Positions 27,557 to 60,547 are shown, counted from the stretch's first letter. The stretch is 64,000 nt of DNA from an uncultured delta proteobacterium (GCA_963848425.1 CAWKDO010000006.1:345362-409361), one strand, 5' to 3'. Notes: a model not told the origin generated them from the sequence alone. Made by a program: numbers and translations.

Positions 27557-29011
27557 TCAGCGCTTTTCCAGTTTTTTCCGCGACAGCGCCAGCTTGTCCA
27601 AATGCCGGTAAAGGGTGGCGCGATGCACGCCGAGCAGGCGGGCGGCGGCGCTCAAATTGCCGGCGGCGGCATGCCAGGCGCGGCGAACCTCTTCCGAATC
27701 GAGCTCGGCCGGGCGGGTGCTGCGCCGGCGCTTCGCCGGCACGAGTTCCGCCTCGAAAACGCCATCGCGGCCGGCGGGCAGAAGGCGGCGCTCGGAGCTG
27801 AGCGGATAGGGCGGAATGACCGGCGCCGCCTCCCGCTCCAGCGCTTCCATCCCCCAGCTTCCGGGGGAAAAATCCTGCCGTTCGCGAATCCACTCGCGAA
27901 AGGCGCGGGCGCCGACCACCTCCGCCTGCGTTTCGACAAAAACCCGCTCCAGCACATTGCGCAGCTCGCGCACATTCCCCGGCCAGAGATAGGACTGCAG
28001 CAGCGTCAGCGCCTCCGGCGTCAGCCGTTCGATGTGGCGGCCGTAGCGGCGATTGAAGATCCGGAGAAAATGCTCGACCAGCAGCGGGATATCCTCGCTG
28101 CGCCGGCGCAGGGGGGGCATGTGGATGCGCAGCACGCAGAGCCGATGATAGAGATCGGCGCGGAAGCGGCGCTCCCCCACCGTCTGTTCCAGCGGCAGGT
28201 TGGTGGCGCCGACGATGCGCACATCGACCCTCTTCTCCACTTCCGCCCCGACCCGCTCGATGCTCCCTGTCTCCAGCACCCGCAGCAGTTTCGCCTGCGT
28301 GTGCAGCGGCATGTCGCCGATCTCGTCGAGAAAGAGGGTACCGCCGTCCGCCCGCTCGAAGCGACCGCGGTGCGTGCGTATGGCGCCGGTGAACGCCCCT
28401 TTTTCGTGGCCGAACAGTTCCGATTCGAGCAGTTCGCCAGAAATGGCCGAGCAGTTGACGGCGACGAAGGGGCCGCGACGGCGGAAGTTGCCGTCGTGCA
28501 GAGCGCGGGCAACGAGTTCCTTGCCGGTGCCGGTTTCGCCGGTGATCACCACCGCCGCCTCGGAGGGGGCATAGAGGGCAATCTTGCGATAAACTTCGCG
28601 CATCGCCGCACTCGCGCCGACCAGGCCGTGAAAGGGAGCGAGCGCTTCCGCCCGGGCGGGCGAATGAAAGCTGAAGGTGACCGTCCGCCCGCTGTAGCCT
28701 TCGGCCAGACCGCCGGCGCGCACCTCGGCGACGAGGAAGACCGGCGGTTCGCCGGCAAAGCGGACGTGCACGCCGGTCAGTGGCTCCGGGCGGGCCGCCG
28801 CCTCCCGCGCCAGCTCCGGCAGCGGTGGAATCGTCTCGGCAAAAAGGCGGTGCAGCAGGCGACCGCGCCCCTTCTCGGGCGCAATACCAGCCAAACGGGC
28901 CAGCTGCGGCGAAAGGCGCAATAGCCGCCAGCTTTCCCCGTCGGCGCTGACGACCACCAGATCGGGGGAAAGGGCGGGCAGTTGATTTTCGTTCCGCTGC
29001 GAATCGGGCAT
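27557..29011 (-). CDS. Sigma-54-dependent transcriptional activator (bEBP) with non-receiver N-terminal sensor domain
   Basis: AAA+ sigma-54 interaction domain ([36 protein letters not shown]) and C-terminal Fis-type HTH. The 130 aa N-terminal domain is unrecognized. Confidence 0.8.
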
Positions 29012-29104: not shown

Positions 29105-29225
29105 GTCCAAGGCTGATCAAAAATGCCCGAATGCAAGGCGCCCGAGTCCGAAGACCCGAGGCGTACCGAAAGGTACGTCGCAGGGTCGGAGGGCGAAGGG
29201 CAACGCCGCAGGCGGGCGTTTTTCA
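29105..29225. repeat. Copy 1 of a 120 bp palindromic intergenic element with 19-bp terminal inverted repeats
   Basis: 5' GGCTGATCAAAAATGCCCG ... CGGGCGTTTTTCATCAGCC 3'. Internal hairpin GGCGTACC-GAAA-GGTACGTC. About 80% identical to the copy at 58661..58778. Sits between the phoU stop and the bEBP gene. Confidence 0.5.
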
Positions 29226-29237
29226 TCAGCCCCCTCA

Positions 29238-29879
29238 CTAAAAGGTGTGGCGGACGATCTCCCCTTCTATCATATAAATCACATCCTCGGCGATATTGGT
29301 GGTGAGGTCGGCGATCCGTTCCAGGTGGCGGGAAACCGAGGTGTACTGGATGAGCGAGTCGATCCGCTCGGGATATTGCCGGATCTGCTCTTTGACCAGT
29401 CGGTAATTGTCCTTGTGGAGGGCATCGACCCCATCGTCGAGGCGACAGACCTCCCGCGCCACCTGGGGATCGAGGTTGACCAGTGAATCGATGGCCTTGT
29501 TCAGCATGACCTGGGCTTTTCCGCCCATCTCTTCGACATCGAAGGGAACCGGCACGCGCCCTTCGGCGGCGATGCCGATCGTGCGTTCGGCGATATTCAC
29601 CGACAGATCGCAGATCCGCTCCAGATCGTTGTTGATCTTCAGCACCGAAACGATGAAGCGCAGATCGATGGCGACCGGCTGGTGCAGGGCGAGAATCTTC
29701 AGGCACTCCTCTTCAAGATCGACCTCCATCCGGTCGACCTGATCGTCGCTGGCAATCACCTTCTCGGCCAGCGCGACATCCATCCGCTCCAGAGAATGCA
29801 CGGACTGCTGCACACTCTCCTCGGCGACGGCGGCGAGTTCCAGAATCATCTTCTTGAGCTTTTCCAACTCCCGATGCAT
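29238..29879 (-). CDS. phoU: Phosphate transport system regulator PhoU
   Basis: About 213 aa, starting [15 protein letters not shown], with two PhoU repeats. RBS GGAGGAAC upstream. The upstream in-frame extension comes from the pstB frameshift. Confidence 0.85.
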
Positions 29880-29899
29880 GTGCCCCACGGCGTTCCTCC

Positions 29900-34784: not shown

Positions 34785-34822
34785 ACAAAAAACCCCGGCA
34801 AGCATGCCGGGGTTTTTTGTTG
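34785..34822. terminator. Bidirectional rho-independent terminator
   Basis: AAAAACCCCGGCAAGCATGCCGGGGTTTTTTGTTG: an 8-bp GC stem flanked by an A-run and a T-run. Lies between convergent genes (methyltransferase on plus, PRC-barrel on minus). Confidence 0.6.
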
Positions 34823-42055: not shown

Positions 42056-42092
42056 TCAGAAAAAACCCCGCTTTAACAGGCGGGGTTTTTTC
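42056..42092. terminator. Bidirectional rho-independent terminator between convergent genes
   Basis: AAAAAACCCCGC-tttaacag-GCGGGGTTTTTTCTGTTT. Confidence 0.6.
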
Positions 42093-46629: not shown

Positions 46630-48174
46630 TTATTTGACCGGTGTCTCCGGGCCAGCTTCACTGGCCGCTACCACCTCGCCAAGGTACTTCGGCAGTTCGA
46701 TGCCGGCCATGCCGGCGACTTCGTGCAAGGGAGGCAGGCTCTTGATCAGCCCGGCAAGAAAATTCGCCGTGCCGCTGCCATCCTTGCCGCTGCCGGAATC
46801 CCAGACGGTTACCTTGTCAATCTTGATATTGCGGATCGCCTCGACCTGCAGCTGCACGATATGCTCGATTTTCTCTGTCATCAGCAACGTGGCAACCGCC
46901 TTGGCGTCGCCGTTGCACCCCTTGACCAGCTCCAAATAACCGGCCGCCTTGCTGTCGAGCACCTTGCGGATACCTTCCGCCTCGGCCTCGTACTTGAGCA
47001 GGATGGCATCGGCCGTGCCCTTGGCTTCGCGGCGGATGCGTTCGGCTTCGGCTTCGGCGGCAATTTCCACCTTGCGCTTGTCGATCTCCTGCCGGACCAC
47101 CTCGGCGGCCGTCAGCCGCTCCTGCTCGGCCATCGCCTGCGCCTTCTGGATTTCGACATCGGCCATTCGCTTGGCGACTTCGCCGCGCTGCAGCGACTCT
47201 GCCTGGCGTACCGCCAGTTCAGCGTTGGTGGCCGCGATCTGCGCCTTGGCCAGGTTTTCTCCCTCGACCGCCTGCGCCTCCTGTCCCTGGACGAAGATGC
47301 GCTGATCGGCTTCGGCCTTCTTCTTCCCTTTCTGCGATTCGGCCACATTCTCGGCGACCCGAATCTCCTTCTCCCGATATGCCTCCGCCTCGCCGATCAT
47401 CGCCGCCGTCTCCTGCTGCTGCACATAGACGCGCTGTTCGGCTTCCGCCTTCTTCTTCCCTTTTTCCGATTCGGCCACATTCTCGGCCACCCGGATCGTC
47501 CGCTCCCGGGTCGCCTCGGCCTCGCCGATCGAACCTTTCTTCTCCTGCACGGCGACATCGACCTTGGCCTGATTGATCGCCTCCGACGCCGCCTTCTTGC
47601 CGATCGAATCGATGTACCCCGATTCGTCGGTAATATCGGTGATGTTGACGTTGATCAGATAGAGGCCGATTTTGTTCAACTCCGGCGCCACGTTCTTGCG
47701 AATCGATTCGAGGAAGCTTTCGCGGTCCTGATTGATCTGCTCGATGGTGAGGGAAGCGACGGTCAGCCGCAGCTGGCCGAAGATAATCTCACGGGCCATC
47801 TCCTCGATCTGGCTCTGGGTAAGGTTGAGCAGGCGCTCCGCCGCCGCGGTCATGATTTCCGGCTCGGTGCTGATGCCGACGGTGAAGGTGGAAGGAACGT
47901 TGATGCGGATGTTCTGCATCGACAGCGCCTTCTGCAGCGGAATGGGAATGGTCATCGGCGTCAGGCTCATGTAGGAGTAATCCTGGATGAGCGGCCAGAC
48001 CAGGGTGCCGCCGCCATGGATGCAGTTGGCCGACTGGCCGGCGCCGACCTTGCCGTAGATGACCAGAATCTTGTCCGATGGGCAGCGTTTGTAGCGCGAT
48101 GCCAGGAACATGATGGTGGAGATGATGAGGATGACCAGGGCGAGAACGGGAAAAATCCAGATATCGAACAACAT
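46630..48174 (-). CDS. Flotillin-like SPFH/band-7 protein (YqiK/FloT type)
   Basis: N-terminal TM, SPFH domain, and long EA-rich coiled-coil with an internal 44-aa tandem duplication. Confidence 0.85.
   Translation of the reverse strand: MLFDIWIFPVLALVILIISTIMFLASRYKRCPSDKILVIYGKVGAGQSANCIHGGGTLVWPLIQDYSYMSLTPMTIPIPLQKALSMQNIRINVPSTFTVGISTEPEIMTAAAERLLNLTQSQIEEMAREIIFGQLRLTVASLTIEQINQDRESFLESIRKNVAPELNKIGLYLINVNITDITDESGYIDSIGKKAASEAINQAKVDVAVQEKKGSIGEAEATRERTIRVAENVAESEKGKKKAEAEQRVYVQQQETAAMIGEAEAYREKEIRVAENVAESQKGKKKAEADQRIFVQGQEAQAVEGENLAKAQIAATNAELAVRQAESLQRGEVAKRMADVEIQKAQAMAEQERLTAAEVVRQEIDKRKVEIAAEAEAERIRREAKGTADAILLKYEAEAEGIRKVLDSKAAGYLELVKGCNGDAKAVATLLMTEKIEHIVQLQVEAIRNIKIDKVTVWDSGSGKDGSGTANFLAGLIKSLPPLHEVAGMAGIELPKYLGEVVAASEAGPETPVK
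47299..47562. repeat. Two tandem, 85%-identical, 132-bp direct repeats inside the flotillin coiled-coil region
   Basis: Units begin GCGCTGATCGGCTTCGGCCTTCTTCTTCCC (47299) and GCGCTGTTCGGCTTCCGCCTTCTTCTTCCC (47431). Period of 132 bp equals 44 codons. Confidence 0.6.
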
Positions 48175-57625: not shown

Positions 57626-58642
57626 TCAAGCGCCGACGCGGATCTCCCAACATTCATCAGCAAGACGCTCCGTCGTGATGGCGACCGGGAGAAAACGCTG
57701 GATCGCTTCGATATTGGTGGTCACGTGCAGGGAGGGTTTGAGGGTGCGAAAGGCACCGCCGCCAGCCAGGGCGAGGGGGAGCAGCAGCTGATCGGCGAGA
57801 TGGCGCCCCACCGGCACGCCCGCCTCCAAGTATTCCCGCACTTCCCGCACCGCCTGCAAGGCAACCTGCTCGGCCGGCACCCCGCGTTCGCCGAAACCGG
57901 TAAAGACCTCGGTTACATGCTCGCTCCCAACCTCGATGACGAGGACGTTCCCCGGCCCGGGCGAGCTGGCGATCTCCTCTATCCGCAGACCGTCGGACCA
58001 ACCGAGTTCCGCCTCGACCATCCGTAATTCCCGTTCGCCGATATGCCGGGGAAGGCGCGCCAGCAGCGCCGTGGCCCGCCGCTCAACGAGCGCGCCGCGC
58101 TCCGGCAAATCGAGGCGGGACAGCCGCGGCGCCGGTTCGATCCGCACCCGGATCTTGCCGCCGCCGGCCGGATAAAAGCCCGGCTGTTCGAGGGTAGCGA
58201 TGACCTTCGGCCCCATGCGCTGCAGCAGCGGCAGGAAGGCGCGGGCGAGAAATTCGAAGGGGGGCGCCGTAGTATTGTGCGTCCCCCCTTCGAGAACCAG
58301 TTCCGATGGACCATTGGCCGTAAGAAGTGGCAGCAGCAGCGTCTGCAACACCAAAGTGCAGCTGCCGGCGGTACCGATAGCAAAATGATAGCTGCCCGCT
58401 CGCACCGGACCGGGAACGAAGGTGAGCTCGCGCGAGCCAAGATTATGGCCGGAAATCTCCGCACCGCCGATCGCCGCCGCCGCTTCCACGGCGGTCAGAT
58501 GCTGGCGCAGCAGCCCCGGCTTAGGGCGGCCGGCGCGGATCTTTTCGATGCGGAAGGGCTGGCCGGTGCACAAAGAAAGGGAGAGGGCGGTGCGCAAAAC
58601 CTGCCCGCCGCCCTCTCCCCGGGAACCGTCGATGATCAGCAT
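57626..58642 (-). CDS. rtcA: RNA 3'-terminal phosphate cyclase
   Basis: 338 aa from MLIIDGSRGEGGGQVLRTALSLSL, with RtcA signatures including the adenylation His region. Confidence 0.85.
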   Translation of the reverse strand: MLIIDGSRGEGGGQVLRTALSLSLCTGQPFRIEKIRAGRPKPGLLRQHLTAVEAAAAIGGAEISGHNLGSRELTFVPGPVRAGSYHFAIGTAGSCTLVLQTLLLPLLTANGPSELVLEGGTHNTTAPPFEFLARAFLPLLQRMGPKVIATLEQPGFYPAGGGKIRVRIEPAPRLSRLDLPERGALVERRATALLARLPRHIGERELRMVEAELGWSDGLRIEEIASSPGPGNVLVIEVGSEHVTEVFTGFGERGVPAEQVALQAVREVREYLEAGVPVGRHLADQLLLPLALAGGGAFRTLKPSLHVTTNIEAIQRFLPVAITTERLADECWEIRVGA

Positions 58643-58660
58643 ATTTTTCTCGCTCCTGCA

Positions 58661-58778
58661 GGCTGAGCAAAAATGCCCAGATGCAAGGCGCCGAAAGCCT
58701 GAGGACTGAGGCGTACACCGGTACGCCTCAGGGACGAAGGGTGAGAGCAACGCCGCAGACGGATGTTTTTCATCAGCC
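58661..58778. repeat. Copy 2 of the 120 bp palindromic intergenic element
   Basis: 5' GGCTGAGCAAAAATGCCCAG ... CGGATGTTTTTCATCAGCC 3'. Internal 11-bp perfect hairpin CTGAGGCGTAC-ACCG-GTACGCCTCAG. Lies 19 bp upstream of the rtcA start codon. Confidence 0.5.
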
Positions 58779-58780
58779 TG

Positions 58781-58969
58781 CTAGACGCCAGTGAACAGGG
58801 GCGTACAGATATCCTCAGCTTTGTCGCTTCTTTCCTTTCCCGACGCCGGATCGACGTTCAGTTTCGCGCGCGCTTCGGCGCCGCAGCTGCTGACCTTCAG
58901 CGAACAGAGATGTTCGGGATGCCGAAGCAAATCGTTTTTTTTGTTGACGACTTTGAGATCCTTTTCCAT
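58781..58969 (-). CDS. Small ORF (62 aa) with strong RBS immediately upstream of the repeat element and rtcA
   Basis: GGAGG 5 nt before ATG (MEKDLKVVNKKNDLLRHPEHL...). No family recognized. Confidence 0.3.
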   Translation of the reverse strand: MEKDLKVVNKKNDLLRHPEHLCSLKVSSCGAEARAKLNVDPASGKERSDKAEDICTPLFTGV

Positions 58970-59146
58970 ACGACCTCCGTAGCAATGTTCCTATAAATTA
59001 TTATAGCACTATCGGCCAATGGCCCGCTCATCCCACCCACCTTGTTGCCTCTCCCCGGCAAGCGTAAAATCGTAAGCAAGACCCTTTGCCTGCCTTGGGC
59101 GGCCACGGGGGGCATCTGATACAACAGATTGCGGAAAGCTGACCGC

Positions 59147-60064
59147 ATGCACGACTTCGAACCCGCTTACCTGCAACTGCACCGCAGCGGCGAACTGGCC
59201 GAACGCGCCCGCCAGGCCCGCGAGCACCTGCGCCATTGCGATCTGTGCGCCCGCGGCTGCCACGTCAACCGCCTTCTCTCCACCCGCGGCGCCGCCTGCC
59301 GCACCGGCGAACGGGCGGTCGTCTGCAGCGCCGGCGCGCACCATGGTGAGGAGCGCCCCCTCTCCGGCCGACGCGGCTCGGGAACGATCTTCTTCTCCTG
59401 GCGCAATCTCGCCTGCGTCTTCTGCCAGAACTGGCAGATCAGCCGGCGCGGCGAAGGGGAGGAAGTGAGCGACGAGGAGTTGGCCGCGATCATTCTGCGC
59501 CTGCAGGCGGACGGCTGTCATAACATCAATTTCGTCAGCCCGAGCCATGTCGTCGCGCCTATTCTGGCGGCTGTGGCGATTGCTGCCGACCAAGGGCTGC
59601 GCCTGCCGCTGGTCTGGAACAGCGGCGGCTACGACAGCCCCGAAGCGCTGGCGCTCCTCGACGGGGTGATCGACCTCTACATGCCGGACATGAAATTCGC
59701 CAACTCGCAGGTCGCCCGCACCTATCTGGGCGTCAGTGACTACGCCGAGGTCAATCAGGCGGCGGTGCGCGAGATGCACCGTCAGGTGGGGGATCTGGTC
59801 CTCGATCGCCAAGGGATTGCCCGGCGCGGTCTGCTGGTGCGCCATCTGGTGCTGCCGGAAAATCTCGCCGGCACCGACCGCATCCTCGCTTTTCTTGCCG
59901 GCGAAATCTCCCCCGCGACCTACGTCAACCTGATGGATCAGTACCACCCGTGCTACCGCGCCGACGAGTACCCGCCCCTCGACCGCCGTCCCACTCCGGC
60001 GGAGCTGGCCGCCGCCCGCGCCCTGGCCAAGGCGGCGGGGCTGACGCGCCTGGATACCGGCTGA
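59147..60064 (+). CDS. PflX-like radical SAM protein (pyruvate formate-lyase activase homolog, COG1313 type)
   Basis: Conserved blocks CRTGERAVV, GSGTIFFS, CVFCQNWQIS, GCHNINFVSPSHV and RHLVLPENLAGT. The first Cys of the canonical CxxxCxxC is replaced in the reading (SWRNLACVFC). Confidence 0.7.
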   Translation: MHDFEPAYLQLHRSGELAERARQAREHLRHCDLCARGCHVNRLLSTRGAACRTGERAVVCSAGAHHGEERPLSGRRGSGTIFFSWRNLACVFCQNWQISRRGEGEEVSDEELAAIILRLQADGCHNINFVSPSHVVAPILAAVAIAADQGLRLPLVWNSGGYDSPEALALLDGVIDLYMPDMKFANSQVARTYLGVSDYAEVNQAAVREMHRQVGDLVLDRQGIARRGLLVRHLVLPENLAGTDRILAFLAGEISPATYVNLMDQYHPCYRADEYPPLDRRPTPAELAAARALAKAAGLTRLDTG

Positions 60065-60070
60065 TCCTGC

Positions 60071-60547
60071 ATGTTCACCCCCCTGCATGTAAAAAGCGAT
60101 TATTCCCTCGGCTACGGCACCGCGGCGGTCGATGAACTGGTCGCCGGAGCGGCGGCGCTCGGCTACCGGACGCTCGCTCTCACGGCGGCATCGGAGCGCA
60201 CCCGATGGCCCTGCGGCCGGAGGCACAGCGCTACGCCTGTCGATCGATCTTTGAGACGGTCGCGGCCGGCCGGCACGAAGCTGTGTCTCGTCGTCATCGT
60301 CGCCGCCATGCGCCGGGTGCCGACCCGGCAGGGACCGATGCAGTTTCTCACCGTCGAAGACGAAACCGGGCTGCTCGAAGCGGCGGTCCTTCCGCCGGCC
60401 TACCGCCGCCTCGGCGAGCGGATTTCCACCCCCGGTCCGTTCCTGATCGAAGGCCGCCTGCGCCGGCAGCAGGACGCCGCGCACCTCGATGTCAGCGACA
60501 TCACCCCCTTCCATGAGCGGGAACAGCCTTACGGGTTAAAGGTTTGA
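60071..60547 (+). pseudogene. dnaE2: Internally deleted remnant of error-prone DNA polymerase III alpha (DnaE2/ImuC)
   Basis: N-terminal 40 aa MFTPLHVKSDYSLGYGTAAVDELVAGAAALGYRTLALT equals the PHP-domain start of DnaE2. The last 75 aa PMQFLTVEDETGLLEAAVLPPAYRRLGERI...IEGRL equal the C-terminal OB-fold of DnaE2. The intervening 900 aa are absent. Confidence 0.6.

Follow-up and report, generated by a model that had tools for sequence, protein, structure and literature searches.

A 64,000-nucleotide stretch of DNA from an uncultured delta proteobacterium (GCA_963848425.1 CAWKDO010000006.1:345362-409361; here called the window) carries two copies of a palindromic element that is, in our judgment, likely to be a non-autonomous, IS5-like MITE (miniature inverted-repeat transposable element). 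Its core of ~120 bp is noncoding and would be co-transcribed as a hairpin in a 3' untranslated region or between cistrons. The family to which the two copies belong is well below 300 bp in length, has conserved inverted termini around a long hairpin, occurs as many dispersed copies in many genomes, is present or absent at orthologous sites, and prefers YTAR tetranucleotides and stop codons. These properties lend good support to the suggestion of a miniature mobile element made in an initial annotation of the window, which had also considered a regulator-binding site and a dispersed structured RNA. Far from being confined to the two copies first noticed, the element is conserved in relatives, and its covariation survives in a larger alignment.

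Two copies of a long imperfect hairpin

We call '+' the orientation of the element in which the strand reads ...ATGCAAGGCG.... Copy 1 occupies 29111..29231 (121 nt) and copy 2 occupies 58661..58778 (118 nt), both on the + strand; the initial annotation had copy 2 in the right place and copy 1 about 6 nt off, at 29105..29225. It had correctly recognized two related palindromes of ~120 nt, the only ones in the window, had quoted their common ends (GGCTGAKCAAAAATGCCC and GCAACGCCGCAGRCGGRYGTTTTTCATCAGCC) without error, and had rightly placed both in the same orientation 5' of two genes on the - strand, that of a sigma-54-dependent activator (bacterial enhancer-binding protein, bEBP) and rtcA. The copies are 84% identical over the aligned block, their ends of ~35 nt are nearly identical, and their G+C content is 59-64%.

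The 5' motif matches the window three times against 0.32 matches expected, one of the three being the reverse complement at the other end of copy 1. Our covariance model R1 scores copy 1 at 118.9 bits (E ~1e-26) and copy 2 at 95.8 bits (E ~1e-20), and neither the motif search nor the model found a third copy in the 64-kb window. On the + strand, copy 1 folds into a long imperfect hairpin of -77.8 kcal/mol (z = -10.2) and copy 2 into one of -50.7 kcal/mol (z = -4.9); the - strand folds more weakly (-61.2 and -48.4 kcal/mol, respectively). Together, the motif excess, the model scores, and the folding z-scores exclude chance for both copies.

Terminal inverted repeats of 19 bp had been proposed for the element, and copy 1 comes close to this: its right arm (29213..29231, + strand; CGGGCGTTTTTCATCAGCC) matches the complement of its left arm (29111..29129, + strand) at 17 of 19 positions (GGCTGATCAAAAATGCCCG versus GGCTGATGAAAAACGCCCG). 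Copy 2 pairs at only 13 of 19 positions. Its basal stem is degraded, with GGATG in place of GGGCG, two stem-breaking substitutions that are mismatches to the model, and it is flanked by CA...TG, which lengthens the palindrome to 58659..58780 (122 nt). The apical hairpin is GGCGTACC-GAAA-GGTACGTC in copy 1 (29160..29179, + strand) and CTGAGGCGTAC-ACCG-GTACGCCTCAG in copy 2 (58706..58731, + strand). This part of the structure (helix 5, 95.6% paired) is conserved family-wide and includes a conserved G-U pair.

A family with covarying stems and shared termini

A pattern scan with one genome per species (GGCTGA-NN-AAAAA, 80-110 nt, TTTTT-NN-TCAGCC) matched at least 118 loci. Among the matches listed, which number 122 (120 in the loci retrieved, here given L numbers, and the two window copies), 69 have an interior of the window type, ATGCAAGGCG ... 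GGCGTAC-loop-GTACGYC ... CAACGCCGCAGATGGGCG. Run on 66 sources (65 retrieved loci and the window), model R1 found at least 79 copies from about 38 genomes, including 10 copies that the exact pattern had missed. GGCTGA, AAAAA, TTTTT, and TCAGCC are invariant in the 69 aligned copies, which were picked by that very pattern; the 10 additional copies have the same termini with a few mismatches. The termini are usually lengthened outwards by CA...TG.

The copies are 109-123 nt long, the core being ~120 bp, and there is also a long form of about 150 bp. About a quarter of the copies have an extra left arm of ~28 nt, made up of CAGGtTGtTGAAAAAG and a 13-nt spacer; this arm repeats the terminal motif a third time, in direct orientation. 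The lengths of the copies do not differ by multiples of 3, and the variation tracks base pairs rather than codons, as befits a noncoding element. Among the same matches, the hosts are mainly Desulfuromonadales (Geothermobacter hydrogeniphilus, Trichloromonas, Desulfuromusa, Desulfuromonas, and many metagenome-assembled genomes, or MAGs), and further hosts are Bdellovibrio, Nitrospira, a Rokubacterium, a Binatia MAG, and Desulfobacteraceae. At least 12 copies, on 11 contigs, are present in G. hydrogeniphilus HR-1.

Covariation was measured on 72 copies aligned to model R1, with 3' partners slid by 1 to 3 columns and 500 shuffles as controls. Standard pairs fill 92.0% of the cells, compared with 34.6-45.2% when partners are slid; 32 of the 46 pairs have changes on both sides, and double-sided changes occupy 294 cells, compared with 47-76 in the slid controls. 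The observed covariation values were reached by none of the 500 shuffles. Hence, the hairpin is maintained in evolution by compensatory substitutions. The initial annotation was right that the hairpin covaries, but the example that it cited, GGCGTAC...GTACG(T/C)C, is the conserved apical tip, and the real covariation lies in the stems below. Helices 2-4, the middle stems, vary freely yet remain paired, and the conserved parts are ~30 nt at each end and the GTAC-containing tip. Several noncanonical features are conserved as well. Position 8 is a C.C mismatch, a U-G pair follows the A-tract, and there are tandem G.A/A.G pairs (AGAU opposite AGAU), an AA bulge, an AAC bulge, and the G-U pair of the tip. 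Two known motifs were considered and rejected. A hammerhead ribozyme, hinted at by CUGAUGA...GAAA on the - strand, does not fit because no stem II lies between the motifs and relatives have complementary NN there, and a kink-turn does not fit because the bulges lie apart from the G.A pairs.

The remaining 53 pattern matches have the same termini around unrelated, hairpin-forming interiors in Bacteroidota, Ignavibacteria, Acidobacteria/Terriglobia, and others. These elements are 106-136 nt long and usually read GGCTGA-YY-AAAAAG ... CTTTTT-RR-TCAGCC (L001, L005, L026, L043, L080, L110, and ~47 more loci). Since the same termini enclose unrelated interiors, they are a module common to several element families. 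Some of the elements with other interiors hold a widespread GTCATTCTGAGCGAAGCGAAGAATC-type hairpin, and some of the Bacteroidota copies have inverted flanks of 7-10 nt instead of direct repeats.

The family with the window-type interior seems to have been undescribed so far. Rfam gave no match at the gathering score for the window and 8 related loci, and at E <= 10 returned only spurious microRNA and long noncoding RNA models. A long-form copy had no blastn match in a plasmid collection, and the termini pattern had none in 2.9 million viral contigs. A literature search for the terminal sequences returned unrelated primers only, one for AGGCTGA in combination with a terminal inverted repeat or the IS5 family returned nothing, and the supplements of the Pelobacter carbinolicus and Geobacter metallireducens genome papers contain no exact match to the termini.

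In some loci, two or three copies or fragments are clustered within 1-3 kb (L081:4036-5108 and L112:2636-5843). In L081, a solo right end lies directly outside the outer arm of another copy, an arrangement that suggests nested or tandem insertions. In another locus (L127:2194-2293), the public assembly has a run of N exactly inside the element, with flank sequence duplicated on both sides; the repeat evidently broke this assembly, which shows how such elements fragment MAGs.

Occupied and empty sites in related genomes

In a comparison of orthologous loci, both window copies are insertions relative to related genomes. At the rtcA site, the window reads ...ggcgtCTAG, followed by the 122-nt palindrome, CAGGAGCGAGAAAAAT, and ATG. 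The site is empty in L125, whose RtcA is 91% identical: this locus reads ...ggcgtTTAAATGctg, and its small open reading frame (ORF) ends in ...ggcgtTTAA, directly followed by ATGctg. It is also empty in L129 and L130, with RtcA identities of 75% and 70%, respectively.

The phoU site is more varied. In L121 and L122 (PhoU 78% identical), phoU and the bEBP gene are still neighbors, with 71 nt and no element between them, L123 (PhoU 77%) has an ordinary, canonical terminator hairpin and no element, and L128 (Desulfuromonas carbonis, PhoU 73%) is without the element, too. A full copy (122 bits) is present in L127 (PhoU 74%), where it abuts the phoU stop in the same orientation as in the window, and L119 (PhoU 82%) has a decayed remnant whose GGGTGA provides the stop codon.

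Some further details of these loci concern stop codons and other mobile elements. The terminal sequence GGCTGATGA holds two in-frame TGA codons. L119 belongs to MAG38 (JACZKF01) and contains two copies (L119:895-987 and L119:135-228): the decayed one gives the phoU stop (GGGTGAtga), and the second overlaps the pstB stop, which reads ...TTC GGC TGA inside the GGCTGA of the element. In L128, a group II intron reverse transcriptase (RVT_1, GIIM; L128:2820-3654) follows phoU instead of the sigma-54 activator, placing another mobile element there.

Target sites, stop codons, and orientation

In '+' orientation, the right end of the element and the adjacent DNA typically read ...TCAGCC-TG-CTAG. In 27% of the copies, a YTAR tetranucleotide is found no more than 10 nt from the right end, compared with 1.7% of random 10-mers from the same loci (a 16-fold excess), and the distribution peaks sharply at offset 2, where exactly 13 copies have it. 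Long forms can have perfect 4-nt direct repeats outside the outer arm and the right end, as found in L076 (CTAG/CTAG), L065 (TTAG/TTAG), and L016 (TTAA/TTAA). In the Acidobacteria relatives, NTAG direct repeats are present in 4 of 5 cases (CTAG in L110, TTAG in L042 and L026, and ATAG in L032). The N is the same on both sides, which favors a 4-bp duplication over a longer inverted repeat.

In the window, the gene to the right of each copy ends in such a tetranucleotide. CTAG at 58781..58784 (- strand) fits the YTAR motif, lies 2 nt from the right end of copy 2, and contains the TAG stop of a 62-aa ORF. A possible YTAR target next to copy 1, at 29238..29241, is 6 nt from its right end and reads CTAA on the + strand; it holds the TAG stop of phoU, which is encoded on the - strand. 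For the family as a whole, neighboring genes were called by a crude ORF caller based on G+C content at third codon positions, which was checked on the window. The right-hand gene reads into the element in 56 of 75 cases, its stop codon being mostly 0-9 nt away, and among co-directional gene pairs 34 have the element in the window orientation versus 12 in the opposite one. A YTAR target explains the siting at stop codons, since YTAR tetranucleotides, which include a TAG or TAA, are rare in GC-rich coding DNA and since a duplication would bring back the stop, but it explains neither the orientation bias nor the strand asymmetry of the hairpin.

Proposed mechanism and points against it

We hypothesize that an IS5-type DDE transposase mobilizes the element in trans. 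Such a transposase would insert at YTAR (CTAG, TTAG, CTAA, or TTAA) and duplicate 4 bp. The hypothesis follows from the fit with published target behavior: IS5 duplicates YTAR (PMC5009759), and MITEPsy1 of Pseudomonas syringae, a 100-nt element with the inverted repeat GGAAGGTCTGAAAAAGCC, duplicates 4 nt (CTAG or YTAA), has the IS5-family ISPsy2 as its parent, and has been shown experimentally to transpose (PMC3189936). In the family described here, the duplication would restore the stop codon, so that insertions at gene ends could build up without harm.

Once in place, the element would be transcribed, through read-through out of the gene upstream of it, as a long hairpin that has a GC stem along with A5 and U5 tracts. 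Given this layout, the hairpin probably acts as a partial terminator or as a structure that protects the 3' end. The '+' form, in which an uninterrupted basal helix lies next to U5, would be the stronger terminator and would be purged from operons, and the leakier '-' form would be tolerated between co-directional genes. Copy 2, which lies in an operon and has two substitutions that break the basal stem, fits such purging of the strong-terminator form. Copy 1 occupies the place at which L123 has its ordinary terminator after phoU, and copy 2 has split a translationally coupled ORF-rtcA pair.

Several observations do not sit easily with this mechanism. The first concerns the transposase. An autonomous insertion sequence (IS) with these termini was not found in the retrieved loci or the window, ~1 Mb picked around MITE copies. 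Inverted end pairs that are 0.7-2.6 kb apart and enclose ORFs in the retrieved loci were only chance pairings with a MITE end, and tblastn with the E. coli IS5 transposase InsH against all retrieved DNA found nothing. The apparent likeness of the termini to the ends of IS5 (GGAAGGTGCGAAYAAG, read from E. coli) and of MITEPsy1 extends no further than AGG..TGAAAAAG, with the outer arm coming closer. Second, neither window copy has a clean target duplication, and most short-form copies have no matching 4-mer on the left. Third, occupancy of the phoU site does not follow PhoU similarity, which implies recurrent insertion at the same stop codon or repeated loss.

The degree of conservation is a further point against the mechanism. 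Syntenic copies in different species are 84-100% identical, compared with 60-91% in their flanks (360 nt, mostly coding). The values are 84-92% versus 76-82% for Nitrospira, 97.5-100% versus 78-91% for Bdellovibrio, and 92-93% versus 77-91% for two pairs from Desulfuromonadales. Behind this conservation may be selection on the element, gene conversion among its copies, or the insertion of similar copies more than once at the same site. The interior features (the tandem G.A pairs, the AA and AAC bulges, the C.C mismatch, and the apical G-U pair) are conserved across phyla and would be unneeded by a MITE that is mobilized in trans. Moreover, of the two strands, the one that folds better ('+') is in most cases antisense to its neighboring genes rather than being the mRNA strand. 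Finally, a scan for canonical intrinsic terminators (a short GC-rich stem, a loop of 3-8 nt, and a T-run) found none in either copy; a GC stem next to T5 is present in the element, but it encloses a structure of ~85 nt.

Strand asymmetry and alternative explanations

The strong covariation and the fact that syntenic copies are better conserved than flanking coding DNA would also suit a cis-acting RNA structure selected by the host, in the manner of REP, BIME, or ERIC sequences. Such a structure would terminate or insulate transcription or protect the 3' end of the upstream mRNA, and mobility would be incidental or ancient. The location 0-9 nt past stop codons, an A5-stem-U5 layout like that of the bidirectional terminators of the same genome (34787-34818 and 42060-42091), and the ordinary terminator found in a relative exactly at the copy 1 site all agree with this explanation. 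Nevertheless, we consider it unlikely. The orientation that places the stronger hairpin in mRNA is the rarer one, and G-U pairs exceed A-C pairs on the strand that is usually not transcribed. Copy 2 lies inside an operon with the ATG of rtcA only 18 nt downstream, and rtcA would be silenced by an efficient terminator at this position. Close relatives do without the element at both sites, the simple scan calls no terminator, and a host-selected RNA structure leaves unexplained why the termini are shared with elements of unrelated interior.

The hairpin has a strand asymmetry. The '+' strand is the more stable one in 69 of the 72 copies (mean, -63.1 versus -52.4 kcal/mol), and its alignment contains 209 G-U or U-G cells versus 37 A-C or C-A cells. 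It is also the C-rich strand of the locus in 51 of 70 loci (GC skew, 51 to 19), and the orientation bias could therefore follow replication rather than transcription. We regard the asymmetry as suggestive only, because much of the G-U excess consists of two or three founder positions multiplied by copying and because the alignment was fitted to a '+' strand model.

The asymmetry gives some room to explanations in which one strand has a function. We think it quite improbable that the hairpin is a strand-specific functional element under purifying selection across at least five phyla, and not merely selfish DNA. The arguments for this are that the '+' strand is usually antisense to the flanking genes and usually C-rich, that the conserved noncanonical features are on this strand, and that syntenic copies are better conserved than the neighboring coding DNA. 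If it were true, the element would be the substrate of an unrecognized mobility or recombination system based on single-stranded DNA (ssDNA), or an orientation-dependent transcriptional insulator domesticated at gene ends.

A more specific version, in which the element acts as a single strand, either as an antisense RNA from the '+' strand or as an ssDNA hairpin for an HUH/Y1-type or integron-attC-like recombinase or transposase, is in our view very unlikely. Beyond the folding and G-U figures, it would account for noncanonical features conserved across phyla, for an orientation biased with respect to both genes and GC skew, and for a target tetranucleotide that is mostly on one side only. However, several copies are flanked on both sides by true 4-nt direct repeats, as is usual for DDE transposition, and the reservations about the G-U excess apply here in full. 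No '+' strand promoter was seen, and a sigma-70 promoter scan of both regions found none inside the elements. The sequence lacks the attC core sites RYYYAAC (R'') and GTTRRRY (R'), and the copies are dispersed beside housekeeping genes and form no cassette arrays.

The structured RNA of the initial annotation, taken as a free-standing RNA gene, was not supported: it has neither an Rfam match nor a promoter, and transcription of the upstream gene normally continues through it in the orientation that folds more weakly. A regulator-binding site, for example an upstream activating sequence for the neighboring sigma-54 activator, is scarcely credible, for although copy 1 lies upstream of the bEBP gene and a palindrome is compatible with binding of a dimeric protein, the copies adjoin unrelated genes (ssb, tRNA, pstB, phoU, rtcA, and others) in dozens of genomes, a relative with the same phoU-bEBP synteny has no element, 120 bp with variable covarying stems is unlike a protein operator, and no sigma-54 -24/-12 motif was seen by eye in either orientation, the spacing being unfit.

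Comparison with known elements

If the element is an IS5-like MITE, it would work, by analogy, like the intergenic palindromes of the ERIC, Correia, or MITEPsy1 type. The effects of ERIC/IRU and Correia elements on mRNA depend on their orientation. Like the copies described here, ERIC/IRU and the Neisseria Correia elements are imperfect palindromes (~105-155 bp) in transcribed intergenic regions and are co-transcribed with the flanking genes as long hairpins (PMC3184786, Table 1). They are found in other hosts, have no sequence similarity to the present family, and target TA rather than YTAR, and abutting a stop codon is a trait of the copies here.

MITEPsy1 with its parent ISPsy2 (IS5 family, P. 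syringae; PMC3189936) resembles the family in several respects. It is noncoding and ~100 nt long, its inverted repeats of ~18 nt include ...TGAAAAAGCC, its insertion at CTAG or YTAA duplicates 4 nt, as may that of the family here, and as a small palindrome it is tolerated at gene ends. In addition, CAGGTTGTTGAAAAAGTC, which is the long form's outer arm in the present family, is similar to the inverted repeat of MITEPsy1. However, the ends are alike only in the A-tract part, the termini here being GGCTGA-NN-AAAAA, and no similarity is detectable in the interior. The present family also has a covarying interior of ~45 bp and the third, outer left arm. MITEPsy1 is known to transpose and has a known parent IS, whereas the family described here is known from sequence alone.

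Chunjie, a MITE of Geobacter uraniireducens, is 178-235 bp long and A+T-rich, with 21-bp inverted repeats and 9-bp direct repeats (PMC3184786). It is a MITE of a related deltaproteobacterial lineage, forms a very stable hairpin, and has one copy in a phosphate-uptake operon without breaking the operon (PMC3184786, PMC10969869). Going by the published description, we rejected an identity with Chunjie: the element here is 118-121 bp long, has 59-64% G+C, and uses a 4-bp YTAR-type target without 9-bp repeats.

The 'predicted short RNA elements' Gmet_R1001-R1024 of G. metallireducens are intergenic multicopy hairpins of ~112 nt (PMC2700814, Additional file 4). Their central palindrome, GRCGTAGCGCTGCTACGCC, GRCGTAGC-GCT-GCTACGCC, resembles the GGCGTAsC...GsTACGYC tip of the present family, and CAAGGC and CGTTG motifs occur in both in the same relative orientation. 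Their termini differ (TTTTCCGCAA...TTGCGAAAAA, with no GGCTGA/TCAGCC). Local alignment scores of 29-48 are marginal against a null of 23.5 +/- 4.3, and nhmmer matched 1 of 13 sequences (E = 6e-4). The similarity suggests that these hairpins are at best distant cousins of the family.

Bidirectional intrinsic terminators share with the element an A-tract, a GC-rich stem, a U-tract, and a position just past stop codons. They differ in that the stem-loop here is ~95 nt long, has internal loops, and is clamped by an extra GGCTGA/TCAGCC helix, and in that one of the copies lies within an operon. Two canonical hairpins of this kind in the window, at 34787-34818 (AAAAAACCCCGG...CCGGGGTTTTTT) and 42060-42091 (AAAAAACCCCGC...GCGGGGTTTTTT), show what ordinary terminators look like in the source genome. 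RAYT-associated REP/BIME sequences (hairpins of 20-40 nt with a 5' GTAG, often in clusters) were rejected as a match, the unit here being 120 nt long, without a GTAG foot, and present singly rather than in arrays. Integron attC sites were rejected as well: the ends here are GGCTGAKCAAAAA and GTTTTTCATCAGCC, with GTTTTTC and not GTTRRRY, and the copies lie beside housekeeping genes.

Significance

In Desulfuromonadales and related MAGs, blocks of ~120 nt of this kind account for puzzling conserved intergenic sequence and for spurious ORFs, such as a 374-aa ORF across copy 2. They also flag places of altered operon structure, here the split of a coupled ORF-rtcA pair and a change at the 3' end of the pst-phoU operon. 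With its YTAR target, the family is an example of how an element may colonize GC-rich genomes with stop codons as safe harbors. In addition, the GGCTGA-NN-AAAAAG termini around unrelated interiors in Bacteroidota, Ignavibacteria, and Acidobacteria hint that one widespread transposase lineage serves many MITE families. The element is of an ordinary kind, and only the strand asymmetry and the high conservation of syntenic copies could raise it above the ordinary. Both are a residual puzzle, which would be notable if a strand-specific RNA or ssDNA function proved true.

Genes around the two copies

All of the genes next to the copies are on the - strand. phoU (29238..29888) reads into copy 1, and its TAG stop is 6 nt from the element. 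On the other side, the gene for the sigma-54-dependent activator (27557..29011) starts 100 nt beyond copy 1; the phoU-bEBP synteny is also found in relatives.

The 62-aa ORF (58781..58969) reads into copy 2 and has no Pfam match. It is conserved in L125 (L125:2-175), where it is translationally coupled to rtcA through TAAATG. An extended -10-like sequence, TGcTATAAT, was read by eye upstream of this ORF, and copy 2 therefore probably lies inside an ORF-rtcA transcript. The spacer of 18 nt between copy 2 and the rtcA ATG (58643..58660) reads TGCAGGAGCGAGAAAAAT on the - strand, contains the Shine-Dalgarno sequence AGGAG, and is not present in the empty site of L125. rtcA itself (RNA 3'-phosphate cyclase; 57626..58642, with the ATG at 58642) lies directly downstream.

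Further upstream, a 501-aa ORF (59009..60514, - strand) is spurious, with no Pfam match and poor codon-position GC. The ORFs that look real are opposite to it on the + strand (59129-60064 and 60071-60547); Radical_SAM matches one of them and PHP/OB-fold the other, both weakly. Hence, rtcA is not preceded by rtcB in the window. Elsewhere in the window, two tandem units of 132 nt, 80% identical to each other, are present at 47269-47532.

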